Source: Verrucomicrobiota bacterium (GTDB taxonomy: Bacteria > Verrucomicrobiota > Kiritimatiellia > CAIQIC01 > Lenti-01). Taken from it: a DNA stretch of 64,000 bases. The first letter of the stretch is position 1; the number at the start of each line of letters is the position of its first letter. The position numbers were made by a program, and so were the translations under genes. The notes under the pieces were generated by a model. The model was not told the DNA's origin. It saw only the letters and a program-made list of their open reading frames with translations, and made no database searches. The stretch lies in NCBI GenBank assembly GCA_031262805.1, contig JAISGX010000036.1:22257-86256 (forward strand). The letters are read 5' to 3'. Shown here piece by piece: positions 5,111-55,848 of this stretch.

Positions 5111-5203
5111 CCGCTCCCAACTCGCATCCCCAAACCTTCGGACAAAACCGCCAGCCATTCAGGCGCTTTCGCGCTCCCGTTTTGTCCTTATGGGACAGGA
5201 GTG
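5111..5203 (+). repeat. Copy A of a ~93-bp structured repeat (ccgctcccaa...cgttttgtccttatgggacaggagtg)
   Basis: ~90% identical to 53803-53895. Core TTTTGTCCTTATGGGAC is also present at 55825-55841. Predicted long-range stem (ggacaaaacc / ggttttgtcc), an internal GCGC-TTTC-GCGC hairpin and a GTCC-TTATG-GGAC hairpin. Followed 65 nt later by a hairpin plus T-run. Confidence 0.8.
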
Positions 5204-5262
5204 GAAACTTATTTTCCAATGCGTAAAAAAAGGGTTCCCGGATAGCCATGAGGTCCGGAACC

Positions 5263-5305
5263 CAAAAATTCCACACAGTGGAAAACTTTTTTCCACACGG
5301 TGGAA
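5263..5305 (-). terminator. Tandem hairpin rho-independent terminator after the gltD/nfnB-like gene (bidirectional)
   Basis: TTCCACACGGTGGAA (5291-5305) and TTCCACACAGTGGAA (5269-5283). On the minus strand the second hairpin is followed by TTTTTGGGTT. On the plus strand the first hairpin is followed by AACTTTTTT. Confidence 0.7.
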
Positions 5306-5318
5306 AAGAAGTAGAGCC

Positions 5319-6809
5319 CTACGGCTGCGAGAGCAGAGCGTTGATGGCGGCGGCGGCCTTCCGGCCCTCGCCCATGGCCAGGATGACGGTGGCGGCGCCG
5401 AGCACGATATCCCCGCCCGCAAACACCTTTGGGAGGCTGGTGCGGCCGTTTTCATCCGTCAGGATGTGGCCCCACTTGTCGGTTTCCAGCCCCGGCGTGG
5501 TCTGCTTGATGAGCGGATTGGATTCGTTGCCGATGGCGATGATGACGGCATCAATGGGAATCTGGAATTCGCTACCGGCCACCTCCACCGGACGGCGGCG
5601 GCCGCTGGCATCTGGCTCTCCAAGTTCGTAGCGCAGACATTCGACGGCCGTGACCCGCCCCTTTTCGCCCAGGATGCGCCGGGCGTTCTGGAGCAGATGG
5701 AACTGCACGCCTTCTTCCTTGGCGTGGCGCACTTCCTCGACACGGGCGGGCATTTCCACCTCGGTGCGGCGATAGATCAAGTGCACATTCTTTGCGCCCA
5801 GGCGGAGGGCCGTGCGGGCAGCATCCATGGCCACATTGCCTCCGCCGAGAACGGCGACGCGTTCAGGAGAATGAATGGGGGTGAAGGCCTTGTCGCTGTT
5901 ATAGGCCTTCATGAGGTTGGAGCGCGTGAGGTATTCATTGGCGGAGTAAACGCCGACGAGATTCTCGCCCTCGATGTTCATGAACTTGGGCAGGCCGGCG
6001 CCGGTGCCAACAAAAACGGCGTCAAAGCCATCCTTCTCCAGCAGATCCGCCAGCTTGCGGGTGCGGCCGACGACAAAATTGGTGCGGATTTCCACGCCCA
6101 TCTGCTTGAGTGCGTCGAGCTCGGTCTGGACGATGGCTTTGGGCAGGCGAAATTCGGGAATGCCATACACCAGCACGCCGCCAGCTTTGTGGAAAGCTTC
6201 GAACAGGACGACCTCGTGTCCGGCGCGGCGGACATCCGCCGCCACGGTGATGCCGGCGGGACCGCTGCCGACCACGGCGACTTTTCGGCCGGTGGCGGGC
6301 GCCACCACCGGGGACTGCATGGCGTTGTGTTCCCGCTCCCAATCCGCGGCATACCGTTCCAGCCGGCCGATGGCGACGGCCTTCTCCACCGACTTGAGGG
6401 CCTTGCCCAGCGTGCAGGGCTGCTGGCACTGGGTTTCCTGCGGACACACGCGCCCGCACACCGCAGGCAACAGGCTGGTCTGTTTGATGATCCGGATGGC
6501 CGCAGCGGGATCGCCCTTGACCAGCTCGGCAATAAAGTCGGGAATCCGAATGCTCACCGGGCACCCGTTCACACAGGGGGCGTTTTTGCATTGCAGGCAG
6601 CGCTGTGCCTCCACGCGGGCCTGGTCGGCGAAATAGCCGGTGGCGACTTCCCGCATATTTCGGGCGCGAGCCAGCGGCTCCTGCGTCGGCATCTCCTGCG
6701 CGGGAAGGGCCATGCGGTCGCGGGGCTTCAACGGTTGCGCCAAGCCTTCCAGGCGCTCCCACTCCAGGCGGGCGGCCTCCTTCAACTCATCTGGGTTCTG
6801 CCAACTCAT
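5319..6809 (-). CDS. GltD-family NADPH-dependent oxidoreductase, large subunit of an NfnAB / sulfide dehydrogenase (SudA)-like pair
   Basis: Two Cys clusters (CLQCKNAPCVNGCP, CGRVCPQETQCQQPC), FAD/NAD Rossmann motifs VAVVGSGPAG and VAVLGGGNVAMD, C-terminal GGD. ATGA overlap with the upstream partner gene. Confidence 0.85.
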   Translation of the reverse strand: MSWQNPDELKEAARLEWERLEGLAQPLKPRDRMALPAQEMPTQEPLARARNMREVATGYFADQARVEAQRCLQCKNAPCVNGCPVSIRIPDFIAELVKGDPAAAIRIIKQTSLLPAVCGRVCPQETQCQQPCTLGKALKSVEKAVAIGRLERYAADWEREHNAMQSPVVAPATGRKVAVVGSGPAGITVAADVRRAGHEVVLFEAFHKAGGVLVYGIPEFRLPKAIVQTELDALKQMGVEIRTNFVVGRTRKLADLLEKDGFDAVFVGTGAGLPKFMNIEGENLVGVYSANEYLTRSNLMKAYNSDKAFTPIHSPERVAVLGGGNVAMDAARTALRLGAKNVHLIYRRTEVEMPARVEEVRHAKEEGVQFHLLQNARRILGEKGRVTAVECLRYELGEPDASGRRRPVEVAGSEFQIPIDAVIIAIGNESNPLIKQTTPGLETDKWGHILTDENGRTSLPKVFAGGDIVLGAATVILAMGEGRKAAAAINALLSQP

Positions 6810-7663
6810 TCCTTCAATCCTTTTTCCATCGCTTCCTCGTGCATCCGGCAGCCGTCCGCCGCGATTTTCTCCTGCTCGCGGAAGGCGCCGAGACGCTGAA
6901 TCAACAAATCATAATCCACTTGGTGACCGTCGAATTCCGGCCCGTCCACGCACACAAACTTGGTCTGGCCGCCCACGGAGACGCGGCAACCGCCGCACAT
7001 GCCGGTGCCGTCGATCATGATGCTGTTGAGGCTGACGACGGTGGGCACATTGTAGAGCTGGGTGGTCAGTGCGCAAAACTTCATCATCATTGGCGGGCCA
7101 ATGGCAACGGCCAAGTCTGGCTTTTCCTGCCGCTCGCACACTTCTTTCAGCGGCGCCGTCACGAGGTCCTTGCGTCCGTAGGAGCCGTCATCCGTGCAGA
7201 TGAACAGTTCGTCCGCAATGGCGCGCATGTCCTCTTCCATGATCACCAGCTCCTTGGTGCGCGCACCGATGATGACGATGAGCTTGTTGCCGGCCTGCTT
7301 CATGGCCTGGGCAATGGGATAGGTGGGCGCCACACCGATACCGCCGCCGACGCAGACGACGGTGCCGACTTTTTCAATGTGTGTGGGACGGCCGAGCGGG
7401 CCGACCAGGTTGGCGATGGACTCGCCTTCCTCCATCTGCGCCAGCACCCATGTGCTACGGCCGACGACCTGAAAGACGATGGTGATGCTCCCCTCTTTCT
7501 CATCGGCATTCGCAATGGTCAGCGGGATGCGCTCCCCGAAATCCGTATCCATCTGCAGAATGACAAATTGGCCGGGCTTGCGCTCTTCGGCAATCAACGG
7601 CGCACGGATCCGCATGCGGTAGACATCTTTCGAGAGCTGTTCTTTCGCCAGTATTTGATTCAT
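6806..7663 (-). CDS. Ferredoxin-NADP+ reductase-like small subunit (NfnA/SudB; PyrK-like FAD + [2Fe-2S])
   Basis: MNQILAKEQL...RMRIRAPLIAE...GQFVILQ...VCVGGGIGVAPTYPIAQ...GMCGGCRV. Start set at MNQ (7663), which has a GGAG RBS. The table ORF extends to 7732. Confidence 0.8.
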   Translation of the reverse strand: MNQILAKEQLSKDVYRMRIRAPLIAEERKPGQFVILQMDTDFGERIPLTIANADEKEGSITIVFQVVGRSTWVLAQMEEGESIANLVGPLGRPTHIEKVGTVVCVGGGIGVAPTYPIAQAMKQAGNKLIVIIGARTKELVIMEEDMRAIADELFICTDDGSYGRKDLVTAPLKEVCERQEKPDLAVAIGPPMMMKFCALTTQLYNVPTVVSLNSIMIDGTGMCGGCRVSVGGQTKFVCVDGPEFDGHQVDYDLLIQRLGAFREQEKIAADGCRMHEEAMEKGLKE

Positions 7664-7697
7664 CTGCTCACTCCATGTGTGAAAACTGGAATAAAAA

Positions 7698-7773
7698 TGG
7701 TGGCGAGAATCGGGATCGAACCGATGACACATGGATTTTCAGTCCATTGCTCTACCAACTGAGCTATCTCGCC
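7698..7773 (-). tRNA. tRNA-Phe (anticodon GAA)
   Basis: Reverse complement GGCGAGATAGCTCAGTTGGTAGAGCAATGGACTGAAAATCCAT...GGTTCGATCCCGATTCTCGCCACCA. Anticodon loop CTGAAAA, canonical T-arm, encoded CCA. Confidence 0.9.
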
Positions 7774-7861
7774 ACCAAAATCCTGTCTCTTATATCGCAA
7801 GGGGCACCGGCGTGTCAATACGCTTGCCTCCTCAAACGGCTCATTTTATAATGGGTGAGAT

Positions 7862-8245
7862 ATGAGTGAGCGCCTTGATTGTCCGTTCTGCGCCCTCCCG
7901 GCCGAACGCGTGGTGGAGGAGGAGGGTCCCTGTCTGGCCTTCCGGGATGCCTTTCCCGTCACGGAGGGGCACATGTTGATCATTCCACGGCGGCACACTC
8001 CGTCCTTCCGGGAGCTAACGGTGGAAGAATGGGCGGCCGCCCACCGGCTGGCCCGGCGGCTGGCCGTGAAACTGCAGGAGGCGGACGCCACCATCTCCGG
8101 CTTCAGCTTCGGAGCGAACGATGGAGCATCAGCCGGACAAACCGTCTTCCATTGCCACCTGCACCTGATTCCGCGGCGGGAGGGGGACCATCCCGCGCCG
8201 CGCGGCGGCATACGGGCCGTCATCCCCCACAAAGCGCACTACTGA
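7862..8245 (+). CDS. HIT-family (histidine triad) nucleotide hydrolase
   Basis: CPFC zinc-ribbon start and the HCHLHLIPR histidine-triad motif. Confidence 0.85.
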   Translation: MSERLDCPFCALPAERVVEEEGPCLAFRDAFPVTEGHMLIIPRRHTPSFRELTVEEWAAAHRLARRLAVKLQEADATISGFSFGANDGASAGQTVFHCHLHLIPRREGDHPAPRGGIRAVIPHKAHY

Positions 8246-8576
8246 AAGCCTTCACGGACGGGGGAACCCGGCGGATCCTTCAGCGGAAAGGATTTATCGA
8301 ACGCCAGGGCCTCCTCTTCCAAGAGTTCAACCGGCGCAAAATCATATTCCCATTTTCCGTTTATGTCCCCCAAGGCGCCCGGAAGTGGCTCCACCGCGCA
8401 TGAAGGCATCGGTTTTTTTCTCATGAGGCGCGCCGTGGAACCCTTCGGTATTCAGGAAGCGGCACAGAGCGCCCCATTTCTCCCTTGCGAGACCGTGAAA
8501 TCGAGGGTATCTTTTCTCGCTCTCCGGGAGAACGTGCCAACGGGTGGCCGGATTGAGCGGATATAGGGATGTGGAG

Positions 8577-10370
8577 ATGAAGAGCAACCATACAGAATTG
8601 AATGCGTGGATCGAAGAAGTGGCCGCGTTGTGCAAGCCGGATGCCATTTATTGGTGCGACGGCTCTCAGGAAGAATATGACCGCCTCGCGGCGGAATTGG
8701 TCGCGGGCGGCACCTTCACGAAACTGAACGAAGCCAAGCGCCCCCATTCCCATCTGGCCTTCTCCGACCCGGCGGATGTCGCCCGTGTGGAGGACCGCAC
8801 GTTTGTCTGTACCACCGACCCGAGGGAAGCCGGGCCGAACAACAACTGGTGCGAACCGGAGGAAATGAAGGCAACCATGCGAAAGCTGTACGACGGCTGC
8901 ATGCGCGGCCGCACGATGTATGTCATTGCGTTCAGCATGGGCCCCATCGGCTCCCCCATCGCCCACATCGGCGTGGAGCTGACGGATTCCGCCTATGTGG
9001 TCTGCAACATGCGCATCATGACCCGCATGGGCGGGGAGGTGCTCAAGGCCTTGGGCAAAGACGGCGTGTTTGTGAAGTGCTTGCACTCCGTGGGCTATCC
9101 TCTGGTGGATCGGCCGGATGTGCCCTGGCCCTGCAATCCCGAAAACCGCTACATTTCCCATTTTCCGGAAGAACCCGCCATCTGGTCCTTTGGGTCCGGC
9201 TATGGCGGCAACGCCCTGCTCGGCAAAAAGTGCTTCGCCCTCCGCATTGCCAGCACCATGGCCCGCAAGCAGGGCTGGATGGCCGAGCATATGCTCATCC
9301 TTGGCCTGACGAATCCCGAAGGGAAAAAGATCTATGTGGCCGCCGCCTTCCCCAGCGCCTGCGGCAAAACCAACCTCGCCATGCTCCAACCAACCATCCC
9401 CGGCTGGAAAGCGGAATGCGTGGGCGACGACATCTGCTGGATGAAGTTCGACGCAACCGGCCGACTGCGCGCCATCAACCCGGAGGCTGGATTCTTCGGC
9501 GTGGCCCCCGGCACCTCGATGAAATCCAACCCCAATGCCATCCTGACGCTGCGCGCCAATTCCATCTTCACGAATTGCGCGCTGACGGAGGAAGGCGATG
9601 TGTGGTGGGAGGATATGACCGACGAGCCGCCAACCCATGCGACCTCCTGGCGGGGGGAGCCCTGGACGCCGGAATCCGGCACAAAAGCCGCCCACCCCAA
9701 TGCGCGCTACACCACGCCCGCCAGCCAATGCCCTGTGATTGATCCTGCTTGGGAAGACCCGGCGGGCGTGCCGATCTCCGCCATTCTCTTCGGCGGCCGC
9801 CGTCCCGGCACGGTTCCACTGTGCTTCGAAGCGCCGTCATGGGAATATGGCACCTTCCTCGGGAGCATCCAGGCCAGCGAAACCACCGCCGCCGCCGCAG
9901 GCAGCGTGGGTGTGTTGCGCTACGATCCGATGGCTATGCTGCCGTTCTGTGGCTACAACATGGGTGATTATTTCGCCCATTGGCTGTCCATGCCGGGCCG
10001 GGTGGAGAATGCAAAAATGCCCTTGGTCTTTTATGTGAACTGGTTCCGCAAGTCGGATGACGGCCGCTTCCTGTGGCCGGGCTTCGGCGAGAATGCGCGA
10101 GTGTTGAAATGGATTTTCGAACGCGTGGAAGGCGGCGGCAAGGCGCAGAAAACCGCCATTGGCTTGCTACCCACCGCCGATGCCATCGATACCACCGGCC
10201 TTTCCATTGAGGCGGAGGATATGGCGGAACTGCTTTCCGTGGATGCCCAGGGCTGGCTGGACGACATGCCTGCCATTCGGGCGCATTACGCCAAATTCGG
10301 CGACGCCATTCCAGAACGGCTCCAAACGGAATTGAACAACCTGGAGGCGCGCCTCAACGCGGTGCCATAA
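8577..10370 (+). CDS. pckG: Phosphoenolpyruvate carboxykinase (GTP)
   Basis: [28 protein letters not shown], kinase-1a motif [21 protein letters not shown] motif CVGDDICWM. Start at MKSN (8577), which follows a GGAG RBS. Confidence 0.9.
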
Positions 10371-10416
10371 CCACAAAGGACAGGAAGGCGCGACCGCCGT
10401 GGCTTCCGTTTTCCCC

Positions 10417-10659
10417 ATGAAGCACATCACGCTCCGCTATTATGCTCTCATCGGCGCCCGGCGCGGGACACAGGCCGATCCGTATGAAACGAATGCGGAA
10501 ACGGCCCGTGAACTGTTGCACGAACTCGAAGCGAACCACGCCGTTCCGTTGACGACGAACATCGTCAAGGCGGCGGTGAATGAAGAATTCGTCGAGTGGG
10601 ATGCTCCCATCCATGATGGGGACACGGTCACGCTTCTGCCACCCTTTTCGGGGGGCTGA
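10417..10659 (+). CDS. MoaD/ThiS-family sulfur-carrier protein (C-terminal GG)
   Basis: 81 aa with a beta-grasp-like sequence ending ...TVTLLPPFSGG. Confidence 0.6.
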   Translation: MKHITLRYYALIGARRGTQADPYETNAETARELLHELEANHAVPLTTNIVKAAVNEEFVEWDAPIHDGDTVTLLPPFSGG

Positions 10660-10721
10660 AAAAGCACAGACGAGAGCCTGTTGTTTTTTTGCGGGCGGCC
10701 GACGGTGGCCGGAAAAAGGCC

Positions 10722-11690
10722 TTACTTCACAAAGGGACTGGCTCCACCCAGGCGCTCCCCCCGCCCCAGATATCGACCACAAATGAAGGCGTCGGAAGTC
10801 ATGACTTTTCCGCCTTCCGGCTGGACGGACAACAACCGGACCACGCCAACACCGGCGGCCACGCACAGGCCTCCCTTGTCGCACCGGAGGACGGTCCCGG
10901 GCGGCTCATCCGTTTGGCCCTCTTCCCTTTTTAACTCATGAACTTTCAACAACGTGCCATCCGGCAGGGTGGTATAAGCGCCGGGCCAGGGATGGAAACC
11001 CCGCCAGCGGTTGACAATGGTGTCCGCAGATGATTCCCAGACTATCCGGCCATCCTCCTTCTTCAGTTTATGGGCAAAGGTCACCTTCGACTCGTCTTGG
11101 GGAATGGCCGTGGGTTTTTCTCCACTGTGCAGGACAGAGAGCACCCCCTGCAACAACTCCGCTCCTTTTTGGGCCAGTCTGGGCGCTAGGGACAGATAGG
11201 TATCCGCCGGGTCAATCGCCACGGCCTCCTGCGCCAGCAAGTCACCGGCATCCATGCGGGGGGTGACATAAAGCACGCTGACGCCGGTCTGTGCATCCCC
11301 GTTCGCCAATGCCCATTGAATGGGACTGGCGCCCCGGTATTTCGGCAACATGGAGGGATGAACATTGAGGGTGCCCAGGCGGGGAATCGCCAGCAGGTCG
11401 GCTCCCAGAAACTGACCGTAGGAGGCCACCACCAGCACATCCGGATCCAGCGCCGCCACTAGGGCGACGGACGCTTCATCATTGACGTTCATGGGGTCCA
11501 GAATGGACAGATGATAATGCCGGGCCAATGGCTTGATGGCACAGGCCTTGGCCCCCAGGCCCCGTCCGCCGGGCCGGTCCGGCTGGGTGATCACTCCCGC
11601 CAGTTCGTCCCGCCCTTCGAGCACAACCGCCTCCAGCAACGGACAGGCCAACTCCCCGGAACCCAACAGGACGATTTTTAATCTGCTCAT
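10722..11690 (-). CDS. fmt: Methionyl-tRNA formyltransferase
   Basis: MSRLKIVLLGSGELACPLLEAV..., formyltransferase motif NVHPSMLPKYRGASPIQWAL, and a C-terminal Fmt domain. Start at MSRLK (11690). The table ORF extends upstream to 11879. Confidence 0.9.
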   Translation of the reverse strand: MSRLKIVLLGSGELACPLLEAVVLEGRDELAGVITQPDRPGGRGLGAKACAIKPLARHYHLSILDPMNVNDEASVALVAALDPDVLVVASYGQFLGADLLAIPRLGTLNVHPSMLPKYRGASPIQWALANGDAQTGVSVLYVTPRMDAGDLLAQEAVAIDPADTYLSLAPRLAQKGAELLQGVLSVLHSGEKPTAIPQDESKVTFAHKLKKEDGRIVWESSADTIVNRWRGFHPWPGAYTTLPDGTLLKVHELKREEGQTDEPPGTVLRCDKGGLCVAAGVGVVRLLSVQPEGGKVMTSDAFICGRYLGRGERLGGASPFVK

Positions 11691-11787
11691 GGGTCCATGA
11701 TAAACAGGGTTTTCCACACGGTCAAACACAACACCGGGAATCGGCATCTTTCTTGTGGAATCCGGGAAAATGTGGAATACTCCGCAC
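11691..11787. promoter_or_regulatory. Divergent fmt / DUF3089 intergenic region with three TTCCAC/GTGGAA motifs
   Basis: ggTTTTCCACACGGTc, cttGTGGAATcc, aatGTGGAATac. Shares the 13-mer TTTTCCACACGGT with the 5263-5305 hairpins. Confidence 0.3.
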
Positions 11788-12798: not shown

Positions 12799-12828
12799 GC
12801 CCACGACTCTCCACCGGAACGGGGGGCA

Positions 12829-12862
12829 CAAAAAAAAGCAAGGGCGCGAACCCTTGCTTTTG
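12829..12862. terminator. Bidirectional rho-independent terminator between the convergent DUF3089 and M20 genes
   Basis: AAAAAAAA-GCAAGGG-CGCGAAC-CCTTGC-TTTTG. A-run on one side and T-run on the other. Confidence 0.75.
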
Positions 12863-12884
12863 AGCGGCGTGGCCGAAGGCGGCT

Positions 12885-14105: not shown

Positions 14106-14133
14106 TTTTTCTTCTCCTTCTGCGGCGTCCGCA

Positions 14134-15612: not shown

Positions 15613-15912
15613 GCTTTTTGCTCCTTATCGGGGACGTTTCAAGTACAATTTGAGAGAGAGTTTCCCCTCTTGGCTCGTTTCCGTCAATCCCTATAAAGCT
15701 TCACAAGAAAAGCGTTTCAACGTGCTTGCCTCTGTTTTCTCCGGTGCCCTAGGGCGGGATTCCGAACGGGAAGAGCGGAGCTCTTCCGAGGGGGGGGAGG
15801 GACACGTCCGCCCCCCCGGCCGCCAGCACCCTTTTTTGAGCGGGCTTGAGGGTTGACGCGAGGGAAAAGGCAGTGTAAAGTGCCTGTGTTGATATAGCTC
15901 TAGATGTGGCAG

Positions 15913-47783: not shown

Positions 47784-50700
47784 GCATTGCGCAGTTTTCG
47801 ATTGATAAAAAAGTCATCACCTATGCCTTCACGGCGGCCATTCTGCTCGGCGGCATGCTGGCCTATACCAAGATTGGACGCTTGGAAGACCCCGAATTCA
47901 CCATCAAGGCCGCCCAGATCATCACGATGTATCCGGGCACCACAGCGCAGGAGGTGCTCGAGGAAATCACCGACCCCATTGAAATCGCCGTCCAGAAAAT
48001 GGGGCAGCTCAAACGCGTCACCAGCACCTCGTATCCCGGCCGTTCCATCATCATGGTGGAAATGGAGGATAAATATGGGAAGAAAGATCTCCCGCAGATT
48101 TGGGATGAACTGCGGCACAAGGTGGCCGACATGCAGGACAGCCTGCCGACGGGCGCCTCCGTGCCGCTGGTGGCGGACGATTTCGGCGATGTCTATGGCG
48201 TCTTCTATGCCATTTATGGCGATGGATATTCCTTCGCCGATCTGAAGGCCTATGCCAAACTGCTACGGCGGGAACTGCTCCAGTGCGAGGATGTCGCCAA
48301 AATCGACATGATCGGCGATCAGCAGGAAGTGGTGTATCTGGAAATCTCCCGCGCCCGCATGGCCGGACTCGGCATCACGCCCCAGCAAATCCAATCCGTC
48401 ATCAGCGGGCAGAATACGGCCGCAGACGCCGGATCCATTGAAATCGGCGACAAATATATCCGTATTTCCCCCACCGGCAAGCTGCAATCTGTGGAGGAAC
48501 TGGGCGAGTTGCTCCTCGTGCAGGGCTCGGCAGCGGGTCAGCAACGGGTCCGTTTGAAGGACCTCGCCACCATCCGGCGCGCCTATCAGGAACCCGCCGA
48601 CGCCCTGCTCCGCTATAACGGCCATCCGTGCATCGGCCTAGGTATCTCGACCGCCAAAGGAGGAAACGTGATGGTCATGGGCGCCTCCATCGACAAACGC
48701 ATGCTGGAGCTGCAGTCCGAAACCCCCGTTGGCATCGAAGTCGGCATCATTTCCCATCAGGCGGACAGCGTGGATGTCGCCATCCGGGGCTTCATCGTCA
48801 GCCTGGTCGAAGCCGTCCTCATCGTGGTGGCCGTCCTGCTGTTCTCCATGGGGCTACAGAGCGGCATTTTAATCGGCGCGATCGTCATCGTCACCGTCAT
48901 GAGCACCCTCATGGTGATGCAAAGCATGGGCATCCTGCTCGAACGTATCAGCCTCGGCGCCTTCATCATCGCCTTGGGCATGCTGGTGGACAACGCCATC
49001 GTCATCACCGAAGCCGTGCTGATCGCGGCCCAAAAGGGCCTCAACAAGGTCAAGGCTGCCGTGGAAATCGTCGAGCAGACCAAATGGCCCCTCCTCGGCG
49101 CCACCGGGGTCGCCATCCTTTCCTTCGCGCCCATCGGCGCATCCCAGGATTCCACGGGGGAATTCTGCCGTTCCCTCTTCCTCGTGCTGCTGATCTCCCT
49201 CTTCATGAGCTGGGTGCTCGCCATCACCTTGACGCCCCTACTGGCTTCCAGTTTCCTCAAAGTGAAAAAACAGCCTGAAAATGCGAAGCCCGTCGATCCT
49301 TACGACACCCACTTCTTCCGTGCTTACCGGGGCCTGCTGATCCGCTGCATCCGCCACCGCTGGCTGTTCATGCTCGTCATGGTCGTCCTGCTGCTGCTCG
49401 CCGGATACGGCTTCCGCTTCGTGAAGCAGAACTTCTTCCCCGATTCCACCCGCCCCCAGATGATGGTGCACTTGTGGATGCCGGAAGGCAGTTCTATCTA
49501 TTCCACGGCCGAACGCATCCAACAGCTCGGCGACCATGTCAAAACCCTCGATGGCGTCACGGGCATCACCGACATGGTCGGCACTGGCGGACTGCGCTTC
49601 CTGCTCACCTACACCCCCGAAGATCCGGATCCGGCCTATGGCATTTTGTTTGTGGATATCGAGGATTCCACCCTGGTGCCCCACCTGTCGAAGACCATCG
49701 ACGAATTCGCCAGAGAAAACATTCCCGATGCGTTGGTTTACTCCCAACGTTTCGTGCTCGGCCCGGGCGATCCACAGAAAATTCAGATGCGCATCATCGG
49801 AACGGATGCCGCCCTCCTTCGCCAGGTTGCCGACAAAGCCCTCGACGTGATGCGCGCAGACCCCAAGCTGGTTGAAATCCAATCCGACTGGCGAAACCGC
49901 GTGGACTTGATCCGTCCGGTCATCTCCACCAACCACGCCCGCAACCTCGGCATCACGCGCACGGAAATCGCCGCCGCCTTCAAGGAGGCCACCACGGGCA
50001 TTCCCATCGGCGCCTATAAGGAAGGCGATGAAAGCCTGCCGATTCTCCTTCGTGCGCCCGAACACGAACTGGAGGACCCCGACTCCCTATTCAGTGCGTG
50101 GTTCTGGGCCGCACGTCTCGGCCGCTCCATTCCCCTCTCCCAACTTGTGGACCGTTTCGAAAACACATCCGAGGAAGCCCTTCTGCAACGCCGAAACCGC
50201 TCGCTGTGCATCACCGTCAAATGCAACACCAGCGGCGAGGAAACCGCCGCCACGGCCTTCAAGCGCCTCGCGCCGAAGTTGCTCGCCGCCACGGCGGACA
50301 TGCCGGAAGGCTATTTCACGGAATGGGGCGGGGAGCACGAAAGCTCCACCAACGCCAATAGCGGTCTAGCAGGCAAGATTCCCCCCATTGTCGCGATCAT
50401 GATCCTGATCGTGATCGCCCTGTTCAACTCGATCCGGCAGCCCGTCGTCATCTTCATGACCGTTCCGCTCACCCTCATTGGCGTGACGGTCGGCCTGCTC
50501 GTTTTCGGCCAGCCCTTCGGGTTCATGGCCCTGCTCGGTTTTCTCAGCCTCGGCGGCATGCAGCTCCGCAATGCCATTGTCCTGATTGATGAAATCAACG
50601 CACAGAAAGCACATGGAGAGAACGACTTCAACGCCATCGTCAATGCAGGAGTCATCCGTCTGCGGCCCGTCGTCATGGCCGCCACCACCACGGTGCTGGG

Positions 50701-50842
50701 CATGTTGCCTCTCGTGGTGGATGCCTTTTATGCCTCCATGGCCGTCACCATCATGTGCGGGCTGACCTTCGCCACCATCCTCACCATGGTTGTCATTCCG
50801 GTCAACTATGCCATTGTTTTCCGTGTACCCAATCCCCATTGA
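47780..50842 (+). CDS. RND efflux permease (AcrB/HAE1 family)
   Basis: MSIAQFSIDKKVITYAFTAAILLGG... 12-TM architecture with two large periplasmic loops. Start at MSIAQ (47780), not the longer table ORF. Confidence 0.9.
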   Translation: MSIAQFSIDKKVITYAFTAAILLGGMLAYTKIGRLEDPEFTIKAAQIITMYPGTTAQEVLEEITDPIEIAVQKMGQLKRVTSTSYPGRSIIMVEMEDKYGKKDLPQIWDELRHKVADMQDSLPTGASVPLVADDFGDVYGVFYAIYGDGYSFADLKAYAKLLRRELLQCEDVAKIDMIGDQQEVVYLEISRARMAGLGITPQQIQSVISGQNTAADAGSIEIGDKYIRISPTGKLQSVEELGELLLVQGSAAGQQRVRLKDLATIRRAYQEPADALLRYNGHPCIGLGISTAKGGNVMVMGASIDKRMLELQSETPVGIEVGIISHQADSVDVAIRGFIVSLVEAVLIVVAVLLFSMGLQSGILIGAIVIVTVMSTLMVMQSMGILLERISLGAFIIALGMLVDNAIVITEAVLIAAQKGLNKVKAAVEIVEQTKWPLLGATGVAILSFAPIGASQDSTGEFCRSLFLVLLISLFMSWVLAITLTPLLASSFLKVKKQPENAKPVDPYDTHFFRAYRGLLIRCIRHRWLFMLVMVVLLLLAGYGFRFVKQNFFPDSTRPQMMVHLWMPEGSSIYSTAERIQQLGDHVKTLDGVTGITDMVGTGGLRFLLTYTPEDPDPAYGILFVDIEDSTLVPHLSKTIDEFARENIPDALVYSQRFVLGPGDPQKIQMRIIGTDAALLRQVADKALDVMRADPKLVEIQSDWRNRVDLIRPVISTNHARNLGITRTEIAAAFKEATTGIPIGAYKEGDESLPILLRAPEHELEDPDSLFSAWFWAARLGRSIPLSQLVDRFENTSEEALLQRRNRSLCITVKCNTSGEETAATAFKRLAPKLLAATADMPEGYFTEWGGEHESSTNANSGLAGKIPPIVAIMILIVIALFNSIRQPVVIFMTVPLTLIGVTVGLLVFGQPFGFMALLGFLSLGGMQLRNAIVLIDEINAQKAHGENDFNAIVNAGVIRLRPVVMAATTTVLGMLPLVVDAFYASMAVTIMCGLTFATILTMVVIPVNYAIVFRVPNPH

Positions 50843-50900
50843 GAGGGAGAGAGGGCCCAAGCGGCCCTCTCCTTCCCTCCTTTCACGAAAGGAAGATGAC

Positions 50901-51659
50901 ATGACAAAAATCCGTTTTTTCTCTCTGTTGGCTTTCTTCCTGGCCGCGCTGCAGGCCAGCGCCCAGGTGGCGTCAGGCGGAGAAGCCAGCACCCCACCGA
51001 AACCCGCTTTTACCACCACGATCTCTCTGGGCACCACCTATACCGAGGGCAACAGCGATACCGCCGTGCTCAACCTGCGCTACGCCACCGAAGGCCAGAA
51101 GGAGCGCCTCGGCACCCTGACGGCCAAAGTGGAAGCCAATTACGGTGAGAACCGGGTGGATGGCCTCAAGGACACCATCACGGAAAACTTCAAGGCCTCC
51201 CTGAACATCAAGAAGGATGTCGGCCGCTGGTATATTTCCGGCGACACCTCCTACTTCTACGACGATATTGCCCTGGTGGATTACCGCATTCTCCTCGGTC
51301 CCGGCGTGGGCCGCCGCCTACTGCAAAGCGACGCGCAGACCCTCACCGTGGAAACCGGCCCCTCCTACCTCTGGGAGCGGGTGGACGGCATCAAGGACGA
51401 CTATGTCGCCCTCCGCCTGGCGGAAAATTATGCCTGGCAAATCAGCGCCACCGCCAAATTCCACCAATCGCTGGAATATCTGCCCAAGGTGGATGATTTC
51501 GAGAATTATCTGTTGCATGCCGAAGTCGGGATCGAAACCGCCATCAACGAATGGATGAATCTGGCCCTGATCGTGCAGGACAAATACGACAATATTCCCG
51601 CCGCGGGCACGGAGCACAACGACCTCAGCATCATCGCCAGCCTCGGCATTTCCTTCTAA
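50901..51659 (+). CDS. DUF481-family outer-membrane beta-barrel protein
   Basis: Signal peptide MTKIRFFSLLAFFLAALQASAQV, alternating beta-strand pattern, C-terminal ...SLGISF. Confidence 0.65.
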   Translation: MTKIRFFSLLAFFLAALQASAQVASGGEASTPPKPAFTTTISLGTTYTEGNSDTAVLNLRYATEGQKERLGTLTAKVEANYGENRVDGLKDTITENFKASLNIKKDVGRWYISGDTSYFYDDIALVDYRILLGPGVGRRLLQSDAQTLTVETGPSYLWERVDGIKDDYVALRLAENYAWQISATAKFHQSLEYLPKVDDFENYLLHAEVGIETAINEWMNLALIVQDKYDNIPAAGTEHNDLSIIASLGISF

Positions 51660-51784
51660 GTCGGCCTCCCGCACGCCCCGCCCGGCATGCCATCCCCCGA
51701 GAGGGCATGTTCGGAATAGCGCTCCTTCTTCGGATTGATTTTTGTGCTGACATCTGGTTCTATTGTCCGATTCGAGTTCTCCCC

Positions 51785-53602
51785 ATGGCAAAAGCATCCC
51801 ATACCTACGACGAAAGCAAAATTCAGACCCTTTCTGCGCTGGAACACATCCGTAAACGCACCGGCATGTATATCGGCCGCGTGGGCGACGGCACCCAGTA
51901 TGACGACGGCATTTATGTGTTGCTCAAGGAGGTTGTGGACAATGCCGTGGATGAATTCATCATGGGATATGGCAAGCGCGTAGACATCACGATGGAAGGC
52001 ACCACGGTTTCCGTCCGGGACTACGGCCGGGGCATTCCGCTGGGGAAGGTGGTGGAATGCGTATCGCGCATCAACACCGGCGCCAAGTATAACGACGATG
52101 TCTTTCAATTTTCCGTCGGCCTCAACGGGGTCGGCACCAAGGCCGTCAACGCCCTTTCCTCTTCGTTCCAGGTGCAGTCGCACCGCGACGGGGAATTTGC
52201 CGGCGCCCGTTTCTCCCGGGGGGAGCTACTCAAAAAATCCGCCGGTACGTGCGCCGGAACCCCCAACGGCACTTTGATTGAATTTGTGCCGGATACGGAG
52301 ATTTTCGGCTCCTCCGCCTATCTCCCCGAACTGGTCCAGCGCCGCCTGCGGCTCTATGCCTGCCTCCATGCCGGGCTGGAGATCGTCTGCAACGGCGAAC
52401 GCATCATTTCCGAAAATGGATTGACGGATTTGATTCTGGAGGAAGTCGGCGACGAATCCGTCTATGGCCCCCTGCACTTCCGTTCCCCCACGCTCGAAAT
52501 TGCATTCACCCACACGCAACGGTTCAACGAAACCTTTTTTTCTTTCGTCAACGGCCAATTCACATCGGACGGCGGCACCCATTTGTCCGCCTTCCGCGAA
52601 GGCTTTCTCAAAGGCGTGAACGAATTCGCCAAAGCCAAATTCGACGGCGATGATGTGCGCGAATCCATGGTGGGCGCCATCGCCATCCGCTTGAAGGACC
52701 CGGTCTTTGAATCCCAAACCAAGAACAAGTTGGGCAATACGGAAATCCGATCCGAGCTGGTGGCTCGGATCCGCGACATTACGGTCGACCTGCTCCACCG
52801 CAATCCGGAAGCTGCGGAAATCTTGGTCAAAAAGATCGAAGAAACGCAGAGCCTCCGCAAAGAACTGCAAACCGTCAAAAAGCTGGCGCGGGAGCGTTCC
52901 AAGGCCGTCAGCATCCGCATTCCGCAATTAAAGGACTGCAAAACCCATCTGGACGCCAAACGGAACCGTGGGAGGGAGAGCATGCTTTTCATCACCGAGG
53001 GGCAATCCGCCGCCGGCTCCATCACGGCCTGCCGGAATGTCACCACGCAGGCGGTGTTCACCCTGCGCGGCAAACCCCTCAACGTGGCGGAATTGAACCG
53101 CGAAGCCGTCTACACCAACGAAGAACTGTATAACCTGATGCGGGCGCTCAATATCGAAGACTCCCTGGCCGGGCTTCGTTTCCAAAACGTCATCATGGCC
53201 ACCGATGCCGATGTGGACGGCCTGCATATCCGGAACCTGCTCCTGACGTTTTTTCTCCGCTTCTTTGAATCCTTCGTGACCGCCGGTCATTTATTCATTC
53301 TGGAGACGCCGCTTTTCCGCGTGCGCAACAAAAAGGAAACGCGCTACTGCTACAGTGAAGCCGAACGCGACAAGGCCATAAAGGCCCTTCGCGCCCCGGA
53401 AGTCACACGCTTCAAGGGCCTGGGCGAAATTTCGCCGTCCGAATTCAAATATTTCATTGGTCCCAACATGCGCCTAACCCCCGTGGTGGTGGAACAAACG
53501 GAACATAAAATTCCATACATCCTGCGATTTTACATGGGCCGTAACACGCCGGAACGCCGCCAATTCATTATGAATTACCTTCGGGTGGACGCAGAAGAAT
53601 GA
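51785..53602 (+). CDS. parE: Type IIA topoisomerase ATPase subunit (ParE/GyrB-like, 605 aa)
   Basis: GHKL ATPase motifs LEHIRKRTGMYIG, EVVDNAVDE, DYGRGIP. Toprim EGQSAAGS, DADVDGLHI. The length favours ParE over GyrB. Confidence 0.8.
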   Translation: MAKASHTYDESKIQTLSALEHIRKRTGMYIGRVGDGTQYDDGIYVLLKEVVDNAVDEFIMGYGKRVDITMEGTTVSVRDYGRGIPLGKVVECVSRINTGAKYNDDVFQFSVGLNGVGTKAVNALSSSFQVQSHRDGEFAGARFSRGELLKKSAGTCAGTPNGTLIEFVPDTEIFGSSAYLPELVQRRLRLYACLHAGLEIVCNGERIISENGLTDLILEEVGDESVYGPLHFRSPTLEIAFTHTQRFNETFFSFVNGQFTSDGGTHLSAFREGFLKGVNEFAKAKFDGDDVRESMVGAIAIRLKDPVFESQTKNKLGNTEIRSELVARIRDITVDLLHRNPEAAEILVKKIEETQSLRKELQTVKKLARERSKAVSIRIPQLKDCKTHLDAKRNRGRESMLFITEGQSAAGSITACRNVTTQAVFTLRGKPLNVAELNREAVYTNEELYNLMRALNIEDSLAGLRFQNVIMATDADVDGLHIRNLLLTFFLRFFESFVTAGHLFILETPLFRVRNKKETRYCYSEAERDKAIKALRAPEVTRFKGLGEISPSEFKYFIGPNMRLTPVVVEQTEHKIPYILRFYMGRNTPERRQFIMNYLRVDAEE

Positions 53603-53802
53603 CCCCTTTCCGCCGCCCTCGGCTCTAGGCTGACGCCCGCCTCTCACATGCGTTCGAGCTCAACGACGTATGCGACGCGATGGGCGAACACGACATCAAG
53701 TGGTAGATCTGGTGCGGGCGACTGCTCCACCTGCTGTTGCGCTTCCTGCGCGACCTGAGCCAGTGGGCTTCTTCCTTCTTCCGGCTCTTCGCCCTTTCCG
53801 CC

Positions 53803-53895
53803 CCGCTCCCAAATCACACCCCTAAACCTTCGGACGAAAACGCCAGCCATTCAGGCGCTTTCACGCTCTCGTTTTGTCCTTATGGGACGAGAGTG
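53803..53895 (+). repeat. Copy B of the ~93-bp structured repeat (left boundary of island 2)
   Basis: ccgctcccaaatcacacccctaaaccttcggacgaaaacgccagccattcaggcgctttcacgctctcgttttgtccttatgggacgagagtg. ~90% identity to 5111-5203. GC drops sharply immediately 3' of it. Confidence 0.8.
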
Positions 53896-54068
53896 AATAG
53901 ATATTGTGTTTTTCGCATGTAACTGCCAACTTTACATGCGGCGGTATCTCCTGTGTCGTTTGCAGATATAAATTCACAATAAGCAAGTGTCCATTGTTGA
54001 CAGCCTGTGCAATTAGCTGGCAATAACGGAGTGCCCTGCTGTGATGATCACCATGCAGTATCGTGATT

Positions 54069-54404
54069 TCATCCACTCATCACAATACGTGCAAAACGAT
54101 CCAATAAGTCCTTTTTTGTCCACCATAATATTAAATCCTCATCGTCATTTGTTGCAGGGCGTATTTTATAAAATTCGTGCCAATCATGGTCATCCACATC
54201 TTTACTGTAAAGTTGCCATAACTGCATCCGTAACGAAGGGATGCCGACTTCTTCAGGAATAAAATATTCATGGTCATACATATGCCTTTTCAATTGCGCA
54301 ATGTCATCCTTTAAAACCTCGCCATCGATAAGTAAGCGACCCCATGCTTTGTAGTTGCTTGCATCGCGATACAGGTATTCAATTACCGTTTTCTGTTTCG
54401 CCAT
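54069..54404 (-). CDS. Orphan hypothetical protein (111 aa), last gene of the island-2 operon
   Basis: AT-rich ORF 6 nt downstream of the HNH gene. No recognisable family. Confidence 0.5.
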   Translation of the reverse strand: MAKQKTVIEYLYRDASNYKAWGRLLIDGEVLKDDIAQLKRHMYDHEYFIPEEVGIPSLRMQLWQLYSKDVDDHDWHEFYKIRPATNDDEDLILWWTKKDLLDRFARIVMSG

Positions 54405-54410
54405 AATTTG

Positions 54411-55172
54411 TCAACCTTTAAAAACATGCTCATTATGCCAGACAAGATAGTTTTTCTCAGGCAAAAACTTCGCTGGTAGAATAATTCTGCGACCCTCCAA
54501 CTCCGCAATCAATTGACCTTGTTTGCTATTGTCTCGTTTGATAGCTCCTGATACCAGTATGCTATAGTCTGCCGTCACCGTAATTAACCCTCTATCAAAC
54601 GCCTTGTCGTGTATGGCTGATAAACACAACCCGTTACGTGGATTTAAGCGTAGTTCGCTTGCTGCAGCCCATGGCACAATGTGGCTTGCAACCAACAAAC
54701 CATGTATTGAAAGACCGCTCATACAGCAACGATTCTGATAACTTGCCATTACCGAGTTGCGGAAAAATGCCTGCCCAATTCTTGCCATTGTTGTAATTAT
54801 TCTGGTTTCACCCATATATGAAATACCGACGTCACTTTCCTGCTTTTCGTCAGGCTGTATACTCGCAAACTGAAAAGCGCACTCTTCACTCAAACTCGTC
54901 CAATCACTATGAAAGGCATCCCATATTCTTTTGTCTGCGACAGAAGCGTTGCCAAGACCTTTGCGACCACTATTGCGTATGGCTGGATCGAGGCTCGCGA
55001 AGTTTACCAATTTCATGGCAACGGCATTGGCCGACCTGCCTAAGAATCGAGCCAACACCTGTATTTGATTGTTTCTTGCATCAATCTTGCCAAAAGGGAG
55101 TTGACAGTATAAGTAAAATGCCAGTTTCAACTCTTGATCAGTCCAGTTTTTTCGCGTGTTTGTAGTTTCCAT
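54411..55172 (-). CDS. HNH endonuclease (HNH_2 / PF13391-like, putative restriction endonuclease)
   Basis: C-terminal motif ASHIVPWAAASELRLNPRNGLCLSAIHDKAFDRGLITV (His...Asn...His-x2-FD-x-G). Distinct N-terminal domain NWTDQELKLAFYLY...LARFLGRSANAVAMKL. Low GC. Confidence 0.75.
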   Translation of the reverse strand: METTNTRKNWTDQELKLAFYLYCQLPFGKIDARNNQIQVLARFLGRSANAVAMKLVNFASLDPAIRNSGRKGLGNASVADKRIWDAFHSDWTSLSEECAFQFASIQPDEKQESDVGISYMGETRIITTMARIGQAFFRNSVMASYQNRCCMSGLSIHGLLVASHIVPWAAASELRLNPRNGLCLSAIHDKAFDRGLITVTADYSILVSGAIKRDNSKQGQLIAELEGRRIILPAKFLPEKNYLVWHNEHVFKG

Positions 55173-55187
55173 CGCGGTATTCCTTGC

Positions 55188-55633
55188 TCACATTACTTTG
55201 TACATTCCGTTCCGTGCTGTAACCGAGTGTTTTTTCGATACTCCGGCTATTGAAAACGGTTGACAAGGGAAACCCGCAAGAAGTATGTCATGCTCCGGTA
55301 TATCATACTCATTGATTTTAGTTATATCGCCGTAAGGCATTACACCAAAGTTTTCATAATACGTTCTTTGGCAATACTTATCCCATTCACTTGAAAAAAC
55401 ACATTCGCCGCCCTGTGCTTCAAAAGCGATACGCATACCGCCTATTCCCGCAAATAGGTCTATAAACCTAAACAAGGCGGCATCGTGCTTGCTCTCTTTG
55501 CTCTTTTCCTCAAATAAGAGGGCAAGGGCTTCTAATATACAATCCTGCCGCGTCTTGTTCGCAACAGTTGCGTATTCTGTTAAGCTGGTGTATATACTCG
55601 ACCATCAAGTCGAATATGTACTTGTTGTGGCAT
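55188..55633 (-). pseudogene. dcm: Remnant of a Dcm/M.EcoRII-like DNA cytosine-5 methyltransferase (motifs I-IV only; N-terminal frameshift, C-terminal two-thirds missing)
   Basis: FRFIDLFAGIGGMRIAFE...VFSSEWDKYCQRTY...[23 protein letters not shown] aligns with E. coli Dcm (FRFIDLFAGIGGIRRGFE...[21 protein letters not shown]) and then stops 14 nt before the HNH start. The upstream in-frame extension has no start codon. MPQQVHIRLDG... is in another frame. Confidence 0.75.
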
Positions 55634-55820
55634 GGTGTTCACCTCTTGGAATTTTCTAATACCTATTATGACACAGTTGTTTCCAACAAGTCAATAAATT
55701 GGGTCTAATGTAATGCCTCCCGTTAGTCAAGGGTGGAGCAGGTGAAGAATTCGATGGCCGCCGCCAGAGTGATCAAGCGGTTTTTCAGCCGCACCCGCGA
55801 GTTGGAGAGGGCGATCCGCC

Positions 55821-55848
55821 CCCATTTTGTCCTTATGGGACGGGAGCG
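55821..55848 (+). repeat. Copy C (truncated) of the structured repeat, right boundary of island 2
   Basis: ccattttgtccttatgggacgggagcg shares the 17-nt core TTTTGTCCTTATGGGAC and flanks with copies A and B. The GTCC-TTATG-GGAC hairpin is retained. Confidence 0.7.

Follow-up and report, generated by a model that had tools for sequence, protein, structure and literature searches.

Related repeat systems

REP and BIME sequences (REPINs) are intergenic imperfect palindromes of 20-40 nt that are present in tens to hundreds of copies per genome and form inverted doublets. They are mobilised by RAYT transposases (Y1 HUH) and are known targets of some insertion sequences. Comparison is also made here with the attL and attR sites found in the 3' ends of tRNA, tmRNA and small RNA genes, with the subterminal hairpins of IS200/IS605 elements and PATEs (derivatives of these that are non-autonomous), and with integron attC sites, in which R'' and R' boxes (RYYYAAC ... 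GTTRRRY) lie at the outer ends of an inward-running stem, and which go together with intI and an attC array. To our knowledge, almost nothing is known about the mobile-element biology of the uncultured PVC-group lineage considered here.

The repeat family described here consists of 95-145-base non-coding units in an uncultured Kiritimatiellia genome, of which a handful of copies are seen. Four copies are found in about 96 kb of this genome, and it is on these 96 kb that both the copy number and the general tie to foreign DNA rest. Copies A, B and C are in the window (the whole stretch of 64,000 nucleotides that was analysed), and copy D is on a second contig, L126.

Copies, extents and copy number

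The four copies are as follows.

5063..5205, + strand: copy A, full unit of ~145 nt; its 3' two-thirds are the 5111-5203 of the preliminary description
53802..53897, + strand: copy B, ~95-nt version, shorter than A and D by their 5' 48 nt (covariance model, 57.8 bits)
55817..55855, + strand: copy C, the 3' hairpin HP2 alone, 38 nt (covariance model, 55 bits)
L126:4326-4468: copy D, fourth copy, ~145 nt, on another contig of the same metagenome

A and B are 90.8% identical over 87 nt (5110-5196 and 53802-53888; BLASTN, E 6.5e-28), with an overall range of 88-91%, which bears out the ~90% over ~93 nt first reported. Extended across 104-114 nt, their identity is 85-87.5%, and nhmmer relates them with E about 1e-39. 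A and D are 87.6% identical over 113 nt (A 5084-5196, E 4e-29), and their likeness can be traced by eye out to A 5063. Thus, the three copies previously noticed in the window are real, but comparison with D shows that the unit is ~145 nt long and that A starts at ~5063. C is a partial 3' copy with an exact 17-mer, as first proposed, although it matches over 38 nt and not ~28 nt (confined to 55817-55854 with nhmmer, E 1.6e-6). The 100 nt upstream of C are unrelated to the 5' part of A and B, as 564-819 of 2000 shuffles score equally.

The 3' end is common to all four copies and the 5' extents are nested (~145 nt in A and D, ~95 nt in B, 38 nt in C). Every copy is intergenic, C lying ~100 nt ahead of where tolB starts, and every 3' flank is AT-rich (GC 0.39-0.48 over 100-170 nt). 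The GC content of the repeat itself (0.54-0.58) is close to that of the host (0.574), compared with 0.40-0.44 for island 2.

No additional copy was found in the window with nhmmer or with a covariance model of the hairpin run with filters off, and the same model found no copy above noise on the minus strand. Some 70 related genomes, contributing about 500 kb, yielded zero copies, and three public collections had no true match to the repeat. Phage and plasmid collections gave no match to the unit, with chance-level matches only in IMG/VR. The one other assembly found, Logan SRR14710920, matches the window with 100% identity. When six-frame translations were compared with 5.8 billion predicted proteins, the sole match was an ORF over copy D; just one extra ORF over a copy among so many proteins suggests few copies. 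The repeat thus appears to be low-copy in the data reached.

The conserved core

The unit closes on its 3' side with a palindrome and has two degenerate half-sites near its 5' end.

5172..5203, + strand: HP2 of copy A, 32-nt imperfect palindrome, CGCTCCCG TTTT GTCC TTAT GGGAC AGGAGTG
5044..5053 and 5063..5072, + strand: degenerate half-sites ATGGAACGGC and ATGGAACAGC, respectively, resembling the 3' half of the core, ATGGGACAG

Copies A, B and D have an identical core, CGTTTTGTCCTTATGGGAC (5178-5196 in A; 53870-53888 in B, where HP2 is 53864-53895), and a core of 17-19 nt is exact in all four copies, while the flanks outside it diverge by 10-18% between copies. The 17-mer TTTTGTCCTTATGGGAC has exactly three occurrences in the window, all on the + strand (in C at 55825-55841), a number reached by none of 100 shuffles. 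The shared exact stretch is 19 nt between C and D, and 18 nt between B and C. HP2 of C reads CGCCCCCA TTTT GTCC TTAT GGGAC GGGAGCG. In A, B and C, HP2 folds as DNA with -6 to -7 kcal/mol (-6.9 kcal/mol in A, z -2.6), but in D with only -2.9. The stability of HP2 thus differs among the copies, and D has lost the pairing of the inner CGCC/GGCG and GCGC/GCGC hairpins, so that conservation is of the sequence rather than of the structure.

The second half-site of A also marks where the A/D unit begins on its 5' side, and it precedes the core by 127 nt. In D, ATGGGACAG at 4326 equals A 5190-5198, and the distance from the half-site ATGGRACAG to the core is 127 nt in both copies; a chance match to the half-site anywhere in the unit is roughly estimated at ~0.01. 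When the 1819-nt island 2 is deleted, the B-to-C core distance is 134 nt. The agreement between 127 and 134 nt hangs on a single degenerate 9-mer.

In anatomy, the repeat resembles REP and BIME sequences in its ~32-nt imperfect palindrome with a strictly conserved core and host-like composition, its strictly intergenic position, mostly at gene 3' ends, its tandem modules ~130 nt apart, and the presence of foreign DNA exactly at the foot of one hairpin. It differs from them in having apparently a handful of copies instead of tens to hundreds, in that the palindrome may carry a conserved, non-palindromic upstream body of 60-110 nt, and in that all copies seen are direct, with none in the inverted pairs of BIMEs and REPINs. 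In addition, a RAYT gene was not seen among the ORFs scanned or in the precomputed Pfam gene lists for about 81 kb of the main contig and for the 14.9-kb contig, lists that pass over ~29 kb in the middle of the window. Thus, of the two readings offered previously, a REP/BIME-like repeat that is a hotspot for insertion has the better anatomical fit (an intergenic imperfect palindrome of host-like GC), but the copies appear to be few and not in the tens, and on this count the repeat would not be a classical REP either.

The explanation favoured here, tentatively and at somewhat less than an even chance, is a lineage-restricted, low-copy, non-coding palindromic repeat that acts at the DNA level and is resident in the chromosome, with the foot of the B hairpin as the insertion point of island 2. 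Its functional part would be the invariant 17-19-nt core (C)GTTTTGTCCTTATGGGAC, at the centre of the 32-nt palindrome that closes the unit on its 3' side. The core may be a recognition site for a DNA-binding, strand-processing protein, a candidate being a transposase or recombinase like those acting on the hairpins of REPs or IS ends. The analysis establishes the repeat and its borders, its lack of coding, its few copies in the data reached, its host-like composition and the junction positions, whereas recognition by a protein, a hotspot role in insertion and the way in which the repeat spreads are proposals. The element would then act as a DNA sequence and not as an RNA structure. Counting against this explanation, a classical REP/REPIN family would seem to need more copies than this, and no RAYT, transposase or other recombinase was seen in the islands and the scanned part of the window.

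Pairing and coding potential

The preliminary description proposed a conserved fold with a long-range stem (GGACRAAAC/GTTTTGTCC), an internal GCGC-TTTC-GCGC hairpin and a GTCC-TTATG-GGAC hairpin. The pairing potential is indeed above controls (87-94% of cells are able to pair, against 33-53% with slid partners), but the long-range stem and the GTCC-TTATG-GGAC hairpin both need GTCC 5184-5187 and are therefore mutually exclusive, and the inner hairpins do not survive in D. An A-U to G-U substitution that preserves pairing between A and B was confirmed. In the B hairpin, the change in one arm is matched by the other, giving U-A where the other copies have C-G. No covariation in the proposed stems could be demonstrated: the three full copies give one compensatory pair, and 166-345 of 500 shuffles do equally well.

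These observations bear on whether the copies are a few paralogous genes for non-coding RNAs, read from the + strand, with a 3' hairpin that incidentally attracts insertions. The pairing potential, well over that of slid controls, the single compensatory pair and the A-U to G-U change would fit such genes, as would a good sigma-70-like promoter at the D locus (TTGCTC-17-TATAAT, about L126:4140-4175) that is directed at the element, and the weak terminator-like sites flagged for A and C. However, folding z-scores of the element reach only -1.3 to -1.7, RNAalifold gives an unfavourable covariation term (+0.89), and the inner helices are broken in D. The promoter is not conserved, with none on the + strand upstream of A or B, and B is without the 5' 48 nt common to A and D. 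A homologue is absent from the relatives searched, and Rfam has no match at the gathering threshold or at E up to 10. RNA genes of this kind are thus considered very unlikely. The blank results from ARAGORN and Rfam (up to E 10) also agree with the initial view that the repeat is not a tRNA, tmRNA or SRP RNA. The hairpin and T-run after A, previously suggested as a terminator for a plus-strand transcript, have to be reassigned: the T-run of the strong hairpin at 5233-5262 is on the minus strand, which makes it the terminator of the gltD-like operon, and the + strand carries one weak candidate after A, at 5269-5292.

The repeat is non-coding. A rapidly evolving gene for a small protein (60-68 aa) might be suggested by the +0 frame, which is open in A, B and D, by homologous ATG codons at A 5063 and D L126:4326, by a JGI gene call over D (P0001), and by the setting of the frame in D, which has GGAGG 14 nt upstream, a promoter farther up and a weak hairpin after the stop. 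However, differences between A and D at codon positions 1/2/3 number 4/12/7, and the changed codons are 18 non-synonymous versus 2 synonymous. B is without the ATG and the 16 codons at the N terminus, the copies have unrelated C termini, and there is no homologue in 5.8 billion proteins beyond the copy itself. A 47-codon open frame in one of six frames is unremarkable (probability ~0.2, by our estimate), and a protein gene is most improbable.

Island 2 and the B/C junctions

The DNA between copies B and C comprises two parts.

53898..55716, - strand: island 2, 1.8-kb low-GC insert (gene GC 0.40-0.44, GC3 0.37-0.42)
55717..55816, no strand: host-like spacer of 100 nt (GC 0.60) from the island edge to copy C, unrelated to the body of A, B and D

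Matches in Pfam, NCBIfam and PADLOC show the content of island 2 to be as described before: a Dcm methylase fragment comprising its first 82-95 aa, a 253-aa nuclease of restriction type (HNH_2) and an orphan ORF of 111 aa. On the left, GC drops from 53897, directly after the B palindrome, and the DNA on the 5' side of B, next to parE, is host-like (GC 0.64). On the right, the compositional edge is at 55716. Thus, the statement that the repeats sit at island edges is exact for B only (53897), with C 100 nt past the edge. B and C do bracket island 2 in the sense that a full and a partial copy lie in direct orientation on its two sides, but direct repeats exactly at both boundaries of the insert are found on the left (53897) and not on the right (55716, 100 nt short of C). 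parE and tolB are not neighbours in any related genome fetched.

The other reading offered previously takes the 3' palindrome as the attB of a tyrosine or serine integrase and island 2 as a decayed remnant, with B as attL, C as attR, and A and D as unoccupied or older decayed sites. As with attL/attR in the 3' ends of tRNA, tmRNA and small RNA genes, a full and a 3' partial copy surround a low-GC segment in direct orientation (here 1.8 kb of foreign DNA), B and C share an exact core of 17-18 nt (an exact stretch of 18 nt), and the nested copies with one 3' end are the expected product of integration into the 3' end of a target. A phage-type gene beside D (phrog_15286) and the position of A on the far side of DNA beginning at tRNA-Val are also consistent with this. 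However, the target is no recognisable RNA gene, the element matching no Rfam family, tRNA or tmRNA, and 100 nt separate the partial copy from the foreign DNA, placing it past the compositional edge and behind DNA of GC 0.60. The core is exact in all four copies, with more shared between C and D (19 nt) than between B and C (18 nt), which makes the likeness of B and C a family trait and not the footprint of a single integration. No integrase family or fragment was matched by the scanned island ORFs (p329, the 119-aa ORF, CreD, HNH, the dcm fragment and the orphan), as had been noted from the start; among the ORFs of islands 1 and 2, the only Pfam, NCBIfam and PADLOC matches are CreD, HNH_2 and the Dcm N-terminus, with no integrase remnant. 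The low-GC side is inconsistent (5' of A and D, 3' of B), and two of the three loci are without a second repeat, as neither a partial copy nor a repeat of the tRNA-Val 3' end is found at the other end of island 1 or the D island. Co-variation of the B hairpin arms would also be unexpected for arms derived from two different molecules. The position of C off the island edge, the core common to all copies and the lack of an integrase match thus weaken the att reading, which is regarded as unlikely.

Under the favoured explanation of a chromosome-resident repeat, the hairpin modules would tend to a tandem spacing of ~130 nt, as seen with half-site and core in A and D, and with B and C once island 2 is removed. 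Island 2 would have entered at the B hairpin foot, parting two modules that already lay side by side, and B and C would therefore be split members of the family, rather than an attL/attR duplication made by the insertion. The B/C pair should not be taken for att sites without an empty-site allele.

Surroundings of copies A and D

The preliminary description placed A at the far end of island 1. A is on the far side of DNA starting at tRNA-Val, but creD separates it from the clearly low-GC patch, which is at 1.9-3.1 kb. The GC3 of creD (0.62) is intermediate between native (0.67-0.80) and foreign genes (0.37-0.50). D adjoins a phage-type Bro-N gene (phrog_15286, E 1e-123). Each of the three full-length copies has lower-GC DNA at a distance of 0-400 nt or one gene, the neighbours being the R-M remnant, the Bro-N gene and creD/p329, and the repeat often adjoins foreign genes. 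This closeness of full copies to lower-GC DNA is equally expected of an att-type site, which counts against the favoured explanation.

Alternatively, the copies could be solo ends of a decayed transposon, IS or transposable prophage. The unit would then be a non-coding terminal region with a transposase-binding hairpin, having its outer limit at the 3' end of the palindrome and an interior that has been lost to variable extents. The fixed 3' boundary and variable 5' extents agree with this, as do the unrelated, AT-rich DNA that always follows the 3' boundary, the location of foreign or phage-type genes 5' of A and D, which is the interior side, and the confinement of the window copies to one strand. 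However, an inverted partner end is absent from the 96 kb examined, a transposase was not seen, and the interior side of B is host-like DNA beside parE (GC 0.64). Six-frame translations match none of 5.8 billion proteins save the ORF over D, and phage and plasmid collections are blank, with chance matches only in IMG/VR. Solo ends are accordingly considered quite unlikely.

Subterminal hairpins of IS200/IS605 elements and PATEs are similar in that the B and C hairpins are direct, on the same strand and flank a segment, in that the boundary is a few nt 3' of the hairpin, and in that the window copies are all on one strand. They differ in that no TnpA or TnpB gene was seen here, the IS605-associated RNA motifs of Rfam have no match, and the B-C segment is an R-M remnant of foreign composition. 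Moreover, in such elements the left hairpin should follow the left boundary, but here it precedes it.

Three further element types were considered and rejected. For a MITE, the ends have only 7 bp of imperfect complementarity (CCGCTCC/GGAGTGG), lost in B and D, and no duplicated flank is apparent by direct reading. For an integron attC site, ACAAAAC and GTTTTGT each have two mismatches to the consensus, and the stem runs outward (GGAC/GTCC). For a CRISPR leader and repeat, there is no array, and no Rfam CRISPR-DR match at E up to 10. The finding of no terminal inverted repeat longer than 7 bp and no target-site duplication also counts against the favoured explanation.

As things stand, this is a lineage-specific repeat that is mainly of value as an annotation note, and any activity is putative. 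If the core is an entry site for foreign genes, it would mark hotspots of gene acquisition in an uncultured PVC-group lineage, and the 37-nt model from this analysis could locate such hotspots across the full genome. There is a slender chance that the core is the landing site of a new Kiritimatiellia recombination system, one that would perform dispersed, integron-like capture of single foreign genes or small cassettes at a few chromosomal pads, with the recombinase encoded elsewhere. The cargo of such a system would comprise the R-M remnant, the phage Bro-N gene and the orphan ORFs.

Nested copies of the repeat in one genome

The repeat is a non-coding intergenic element of 95-145 nt, ending at its 3' side in a 32-nt imperfect palindrome with a 17-19-nt core. 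Copies A and B are 90.8% identical over 87 nt, in line with the roughly 90% of the preliminary description, and 85-87.5% identical over 104-114 nt (nhmmer E ~1e-39). As had been proposed, copy C is a 3' part only, its match being confined to 55817-55854 (nhmmer E 1.6e-6), and all three copies carry the exact 17-mer TTTTGTCCTTATGGGAC, which occurs three times in the window, each time on the plus strand (three matches were reached in 0 of 100 shuffles). CGTTTTGTCCTTATGGGAC is identical in A, B and the fourth copy, D, and C deviates from it at one edge base. No significant kinship to the A/B body was seen in the 100 nt that precede C. No further copy was found in the window, with a whole-unit profile or with a hairpin covariance model (filters off), nor in the other 17 kb of the contig examined.

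Outside the window, the core pattern had no matches in genome_contigs, and a near-identical pattern had none in metagenome_contigs. Matches to the 17-mer in IMG/VR lie within a coding signal peptide and were dismissed as chance; two more IMG/VR patterns gave no matches in one case and chance matches only in the other. BLASTN against phages and plasmids returned no relevant match, and no paper came up when full texts were searched for the core. As the public DNA collections gave no match, the frame open in both A and B (+0) was translated and searched against 5.8 billion predicted proteins. The single match, at E 7e-13, was P0001, a 68-aa 'hypothetical protein' that belongs to the same metagenome; when the remaining five frames of the three copies A, B and D were concatenated and searched likewise, no protein matched. 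P0001 is encoded on the 14.9-kb contig L126, where an nhmmer match (E 1.7e-28) places copy D at 4364-4466. It is flanked on one side by a phage-type Bro-N gene (GC3 0.50; phrog_15286, E 1e-123) and on the other by trpA, which borders it with its 3' end. A and D are alike over another 48 nt at their 5' side, with which A starts at 5063 and D at L126:4326. The copies thus end at the same 3' position but are nested in length, reaching ~145 nt in A and D, 95 nt in B and 38 nt in C. Facing D and P0001, the gap between Bro-N and D (L126:4130-4260) also has a sigma-70-type promoter close to consensus (TTGCTC-17-TATAAT), together with three motifs of the form TTGCGAC / TCGCGAC.

The window also corresponds to positions 22283-86282 of the 94.5-kb contig Ga0466706_060969 (JGI metagenome 3300042599), and the same proteins are present in the GenBank 'Verrucomicrobiota bacterium' MAG (ParE, MDR0993351.1; HNH protein, MDR0993353.1). 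ParE is at most 85% identical to the nearest species representatives, all Kiritimatiellia MAGs, so the host is an uncultured member of the Kiritimatiellia without a close genome in the searchable collections. The Logan contigs (SRR14710920) are 100% identical to the window and thus provide no independent strain. The evidence base is four element copies on ~96 kb of one genome.

Insertion of island 2 beside copy B

Copy B lies 200 nt past the parE stop. Where its palindrome ends, at 53897, GC drops over a few bases from >0.5 to 0.33-0.37, and island 2, the 1.8-kb low-GC insert between B and C, begins precisely at the foot of this hairpin. Its genes have a GC of 0.40-0.44 and a GC3 of 0.37-0.42, against a GC3 of 0.67-0.80 in native genes. 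All three features described before are found, on the minus strand:

Island 2, minus strand: Dcm methylase fragment, first 82-95 residues
Island 2, minus strand: HNH_2 nuclease, 253 aa (PADLOC HNH, E 1.6e-101)
Island 2, minus strand: orphan ORF, 111 aa

The right compositional edge is at ~55716, followed by 100 nt of host-like sequence (GC 0.60), copy C (55817-55855) and the tolB promoter region. The earlier placing of each copy at the edge of a low-GC island therefore holds for B, at the GC drop, whereas C lies 100 nt beyond the right edge. The nearest non-self HNH homologue is only 60% identical, so the borders of island 2 are not fixable by homology. The nuclease (54411-55475, minus strand) is of restriction type and apparently intact beside the truncated Dcm. 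In NCBIfam, its similarity to a phosphorothioate-DNA-dependent restriction endonuclease stays below threshold (68 bits against a cut-off of 180); from this it may be modification-dependent, in which case a cognate methylase would not be needed.

B and C could be read as the attL and attR sites of an integrase. Three things would then be expected, namely an identity peculiar to B and C, a repeat directly on each border and an integrase; none is borne out. The 17-19-nt core is exact in all four copies, with C and D sharing 19 nt and B and C 18; 100 nt separate C from the foreign DNA; and the ORFs scanned in islands 1 and 2 have no match to an integrase family, as the preliminary description had noted. 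Moreover, in the B hairpin a U-A pair replaces the C-G of the other copies, with the two arms compensating each other; arms derived from different molecules would match in this way only by coincidence. An att-type site is thus considered unlikely. That the element is a solo transposon or IS end appears slightly more doubtful again.

The reading we tentatively prefer, while giving it somewhat less than even weight, is a resident repeat acting at the DNA level, the conserved core of which is predicted to be recognised by a protein and to act as an insertion hotspot. At 0.54-0.58, the GC of the element is host-like. With island 2 removed, the B and C cores would be 134 nt apart. The 5' end of the unit in A and D is marked by a degenerate half-site, ATGGRACAG, at a distance of 127 nt from the core. 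This spacing argument hangs on one degenerate 9-mer, whose probability of matching by chance is roughly put at ~0.01 for any position in the unit and lower for the boundary itself. Host-like GC, insertion at the foot of the B hairpin and the 134/127-nt spacing fit a resident palindromic repeat family, in which modules would be arranged in tandem and one of them would have received island 2. Of three loci, two are clearly associated with foreign DNA and the third is ambiguous. In contrast to classical REPs, the element has an apparently low copy number and a conserved non-palindromic body, and the copies detected are all in direct orientation.

In Logan SRR14710920, the parE contig (L002) ends at window position 53853 and the island contig (L086) begins at 53835, inside B, with an overlap of 19 nt. 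No 31-mer in common with B at this break is present in A or D. Low coverage could account for the break, as could another copy elsewhere that is closer to B.

RNA, protein and other identities of the element

Rfam (gathering threshold, and E up to 10) and ARAGORN detected only the three tRNAs of the window; the element, which had not been recognised earlier as a tRNA, tmRNA or SRP RNA, thus matches no known RNA. Single-sequence folds have z of -1.2 to -1.8 on either strand, and the RNAalifold covariation term is unfavourable. In the stems proposed previously, 87-94% of cells pair, against 33-53% in slid controls, but covariation amounts to a single compensatory pair, equalled or bettered in 166-345 of 500 shuffles. 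The long-range stem and the GTCC/GGAC hairpin do not form one architecture, as both compete for the same GTCC, and the inner hairpins (CGCC/GGCG and GCGC/GCGC) are broken in D. Folded as DNA, the hairpin (37 nt) reaches -6 to -7 kcal/mol in the three window copies but only -2.9 in D. The element is not demonstrably a structured RNA, the conserved property is its sequence, and a small RNA gene is judged improbable.

A protein-coding reading was rejected: changes between A and D at codon positions 1/2/3 in the open frame number 4/12/7. With 18 non-synonymous against 2 synonymous changed codons (A-B and B-D are alike), a small protein gene is very improbable. A CRISPR-like reading was ruled out on anatomy, there being no array, as were attC-like and Xer/dif-like readings, which fit their consensus sequences poorly.

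The parE-tolB neighbourhood in relatives

Comparison with the parE locus in 80 species and with 34 metagenomic tolB loci (tolB ~38-80% identical) shows parE and tolB as neighbours in this genome only (window 51785-57120); relatives have other neighbours. No copy of the element was found in these loci, which shows only that it is restricted to a narrow lineage. Among the loci compared, L010 and L011 included, more distant relatives have a parC/gyrA-like gene directly after parE, and the closest MAGs have other parE neighbours. In one related MAG (JAQUJC010000047; L004:6812-6870), a G/T-rich GGTGG/GTTGG run of ~60 nt directly follows the parE stop. Downstream, the order tolB-pal-CHAD is conserved. 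Upstream of tolB, relatives L092-L105 have a conserved promoter-like block, GCATTCTG..GTTGCATCCGCGGCG..TTGGCTAGCATCCCC (TTGCAT-N17-TAGCAT), and at 55870-55953 the window carries just a diverged form of it, GGTTGCGCTACAGTAACGGTTGGTGGAGCCCC.

The locus of copy A

Copy A lies in a 378-nt spacer, with the creD start on one side and a gltD-like stop on the other:

3546-4940, minus strand: creD (Pfam CreD, E 7e-124)
5319-6809, minus strand: gltD-like gene, its stop facing the copy A spacer

The strong hairpin after A (5233-5262), earlier regarded as a possible plus-strand terminator, has its T-run on the minus strand and so terminates the gltD-like operon instead. No repeat of the tRNA-Val 3' end bounding island 1 was found, nor a second core-like sequence at the far side of island 1 or of the Bro-N segment on L126. 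Directly after tRNA-Val, the low-GC segment 1843-3545 contains a 60-aa ORF and a 329-aa ORF (GC3 0.48) with no matches in Pfam, NCBIfam or PADLOC; no integrase is present in the segment.

Tandem palindromes TTCCAC-N3-GTGGAA, often TTTTCCAC...GTGGAAAA, occur just past the gltD-like stop at 5269-5305 and also at 5200-5218 (2 matches in the window against 0.15 expected). Further sites are at L126:13524-13538 and, upstream of tolB in related Kiritimatiellia, at L097:3764-3778 and L104/L111:3629-3769. The motif looks like a separate, phylogenetically wider palindromic family, REP-like or an operator, and a further locus, L100, has the variant ACGTGGAACGT / TTTACGT.
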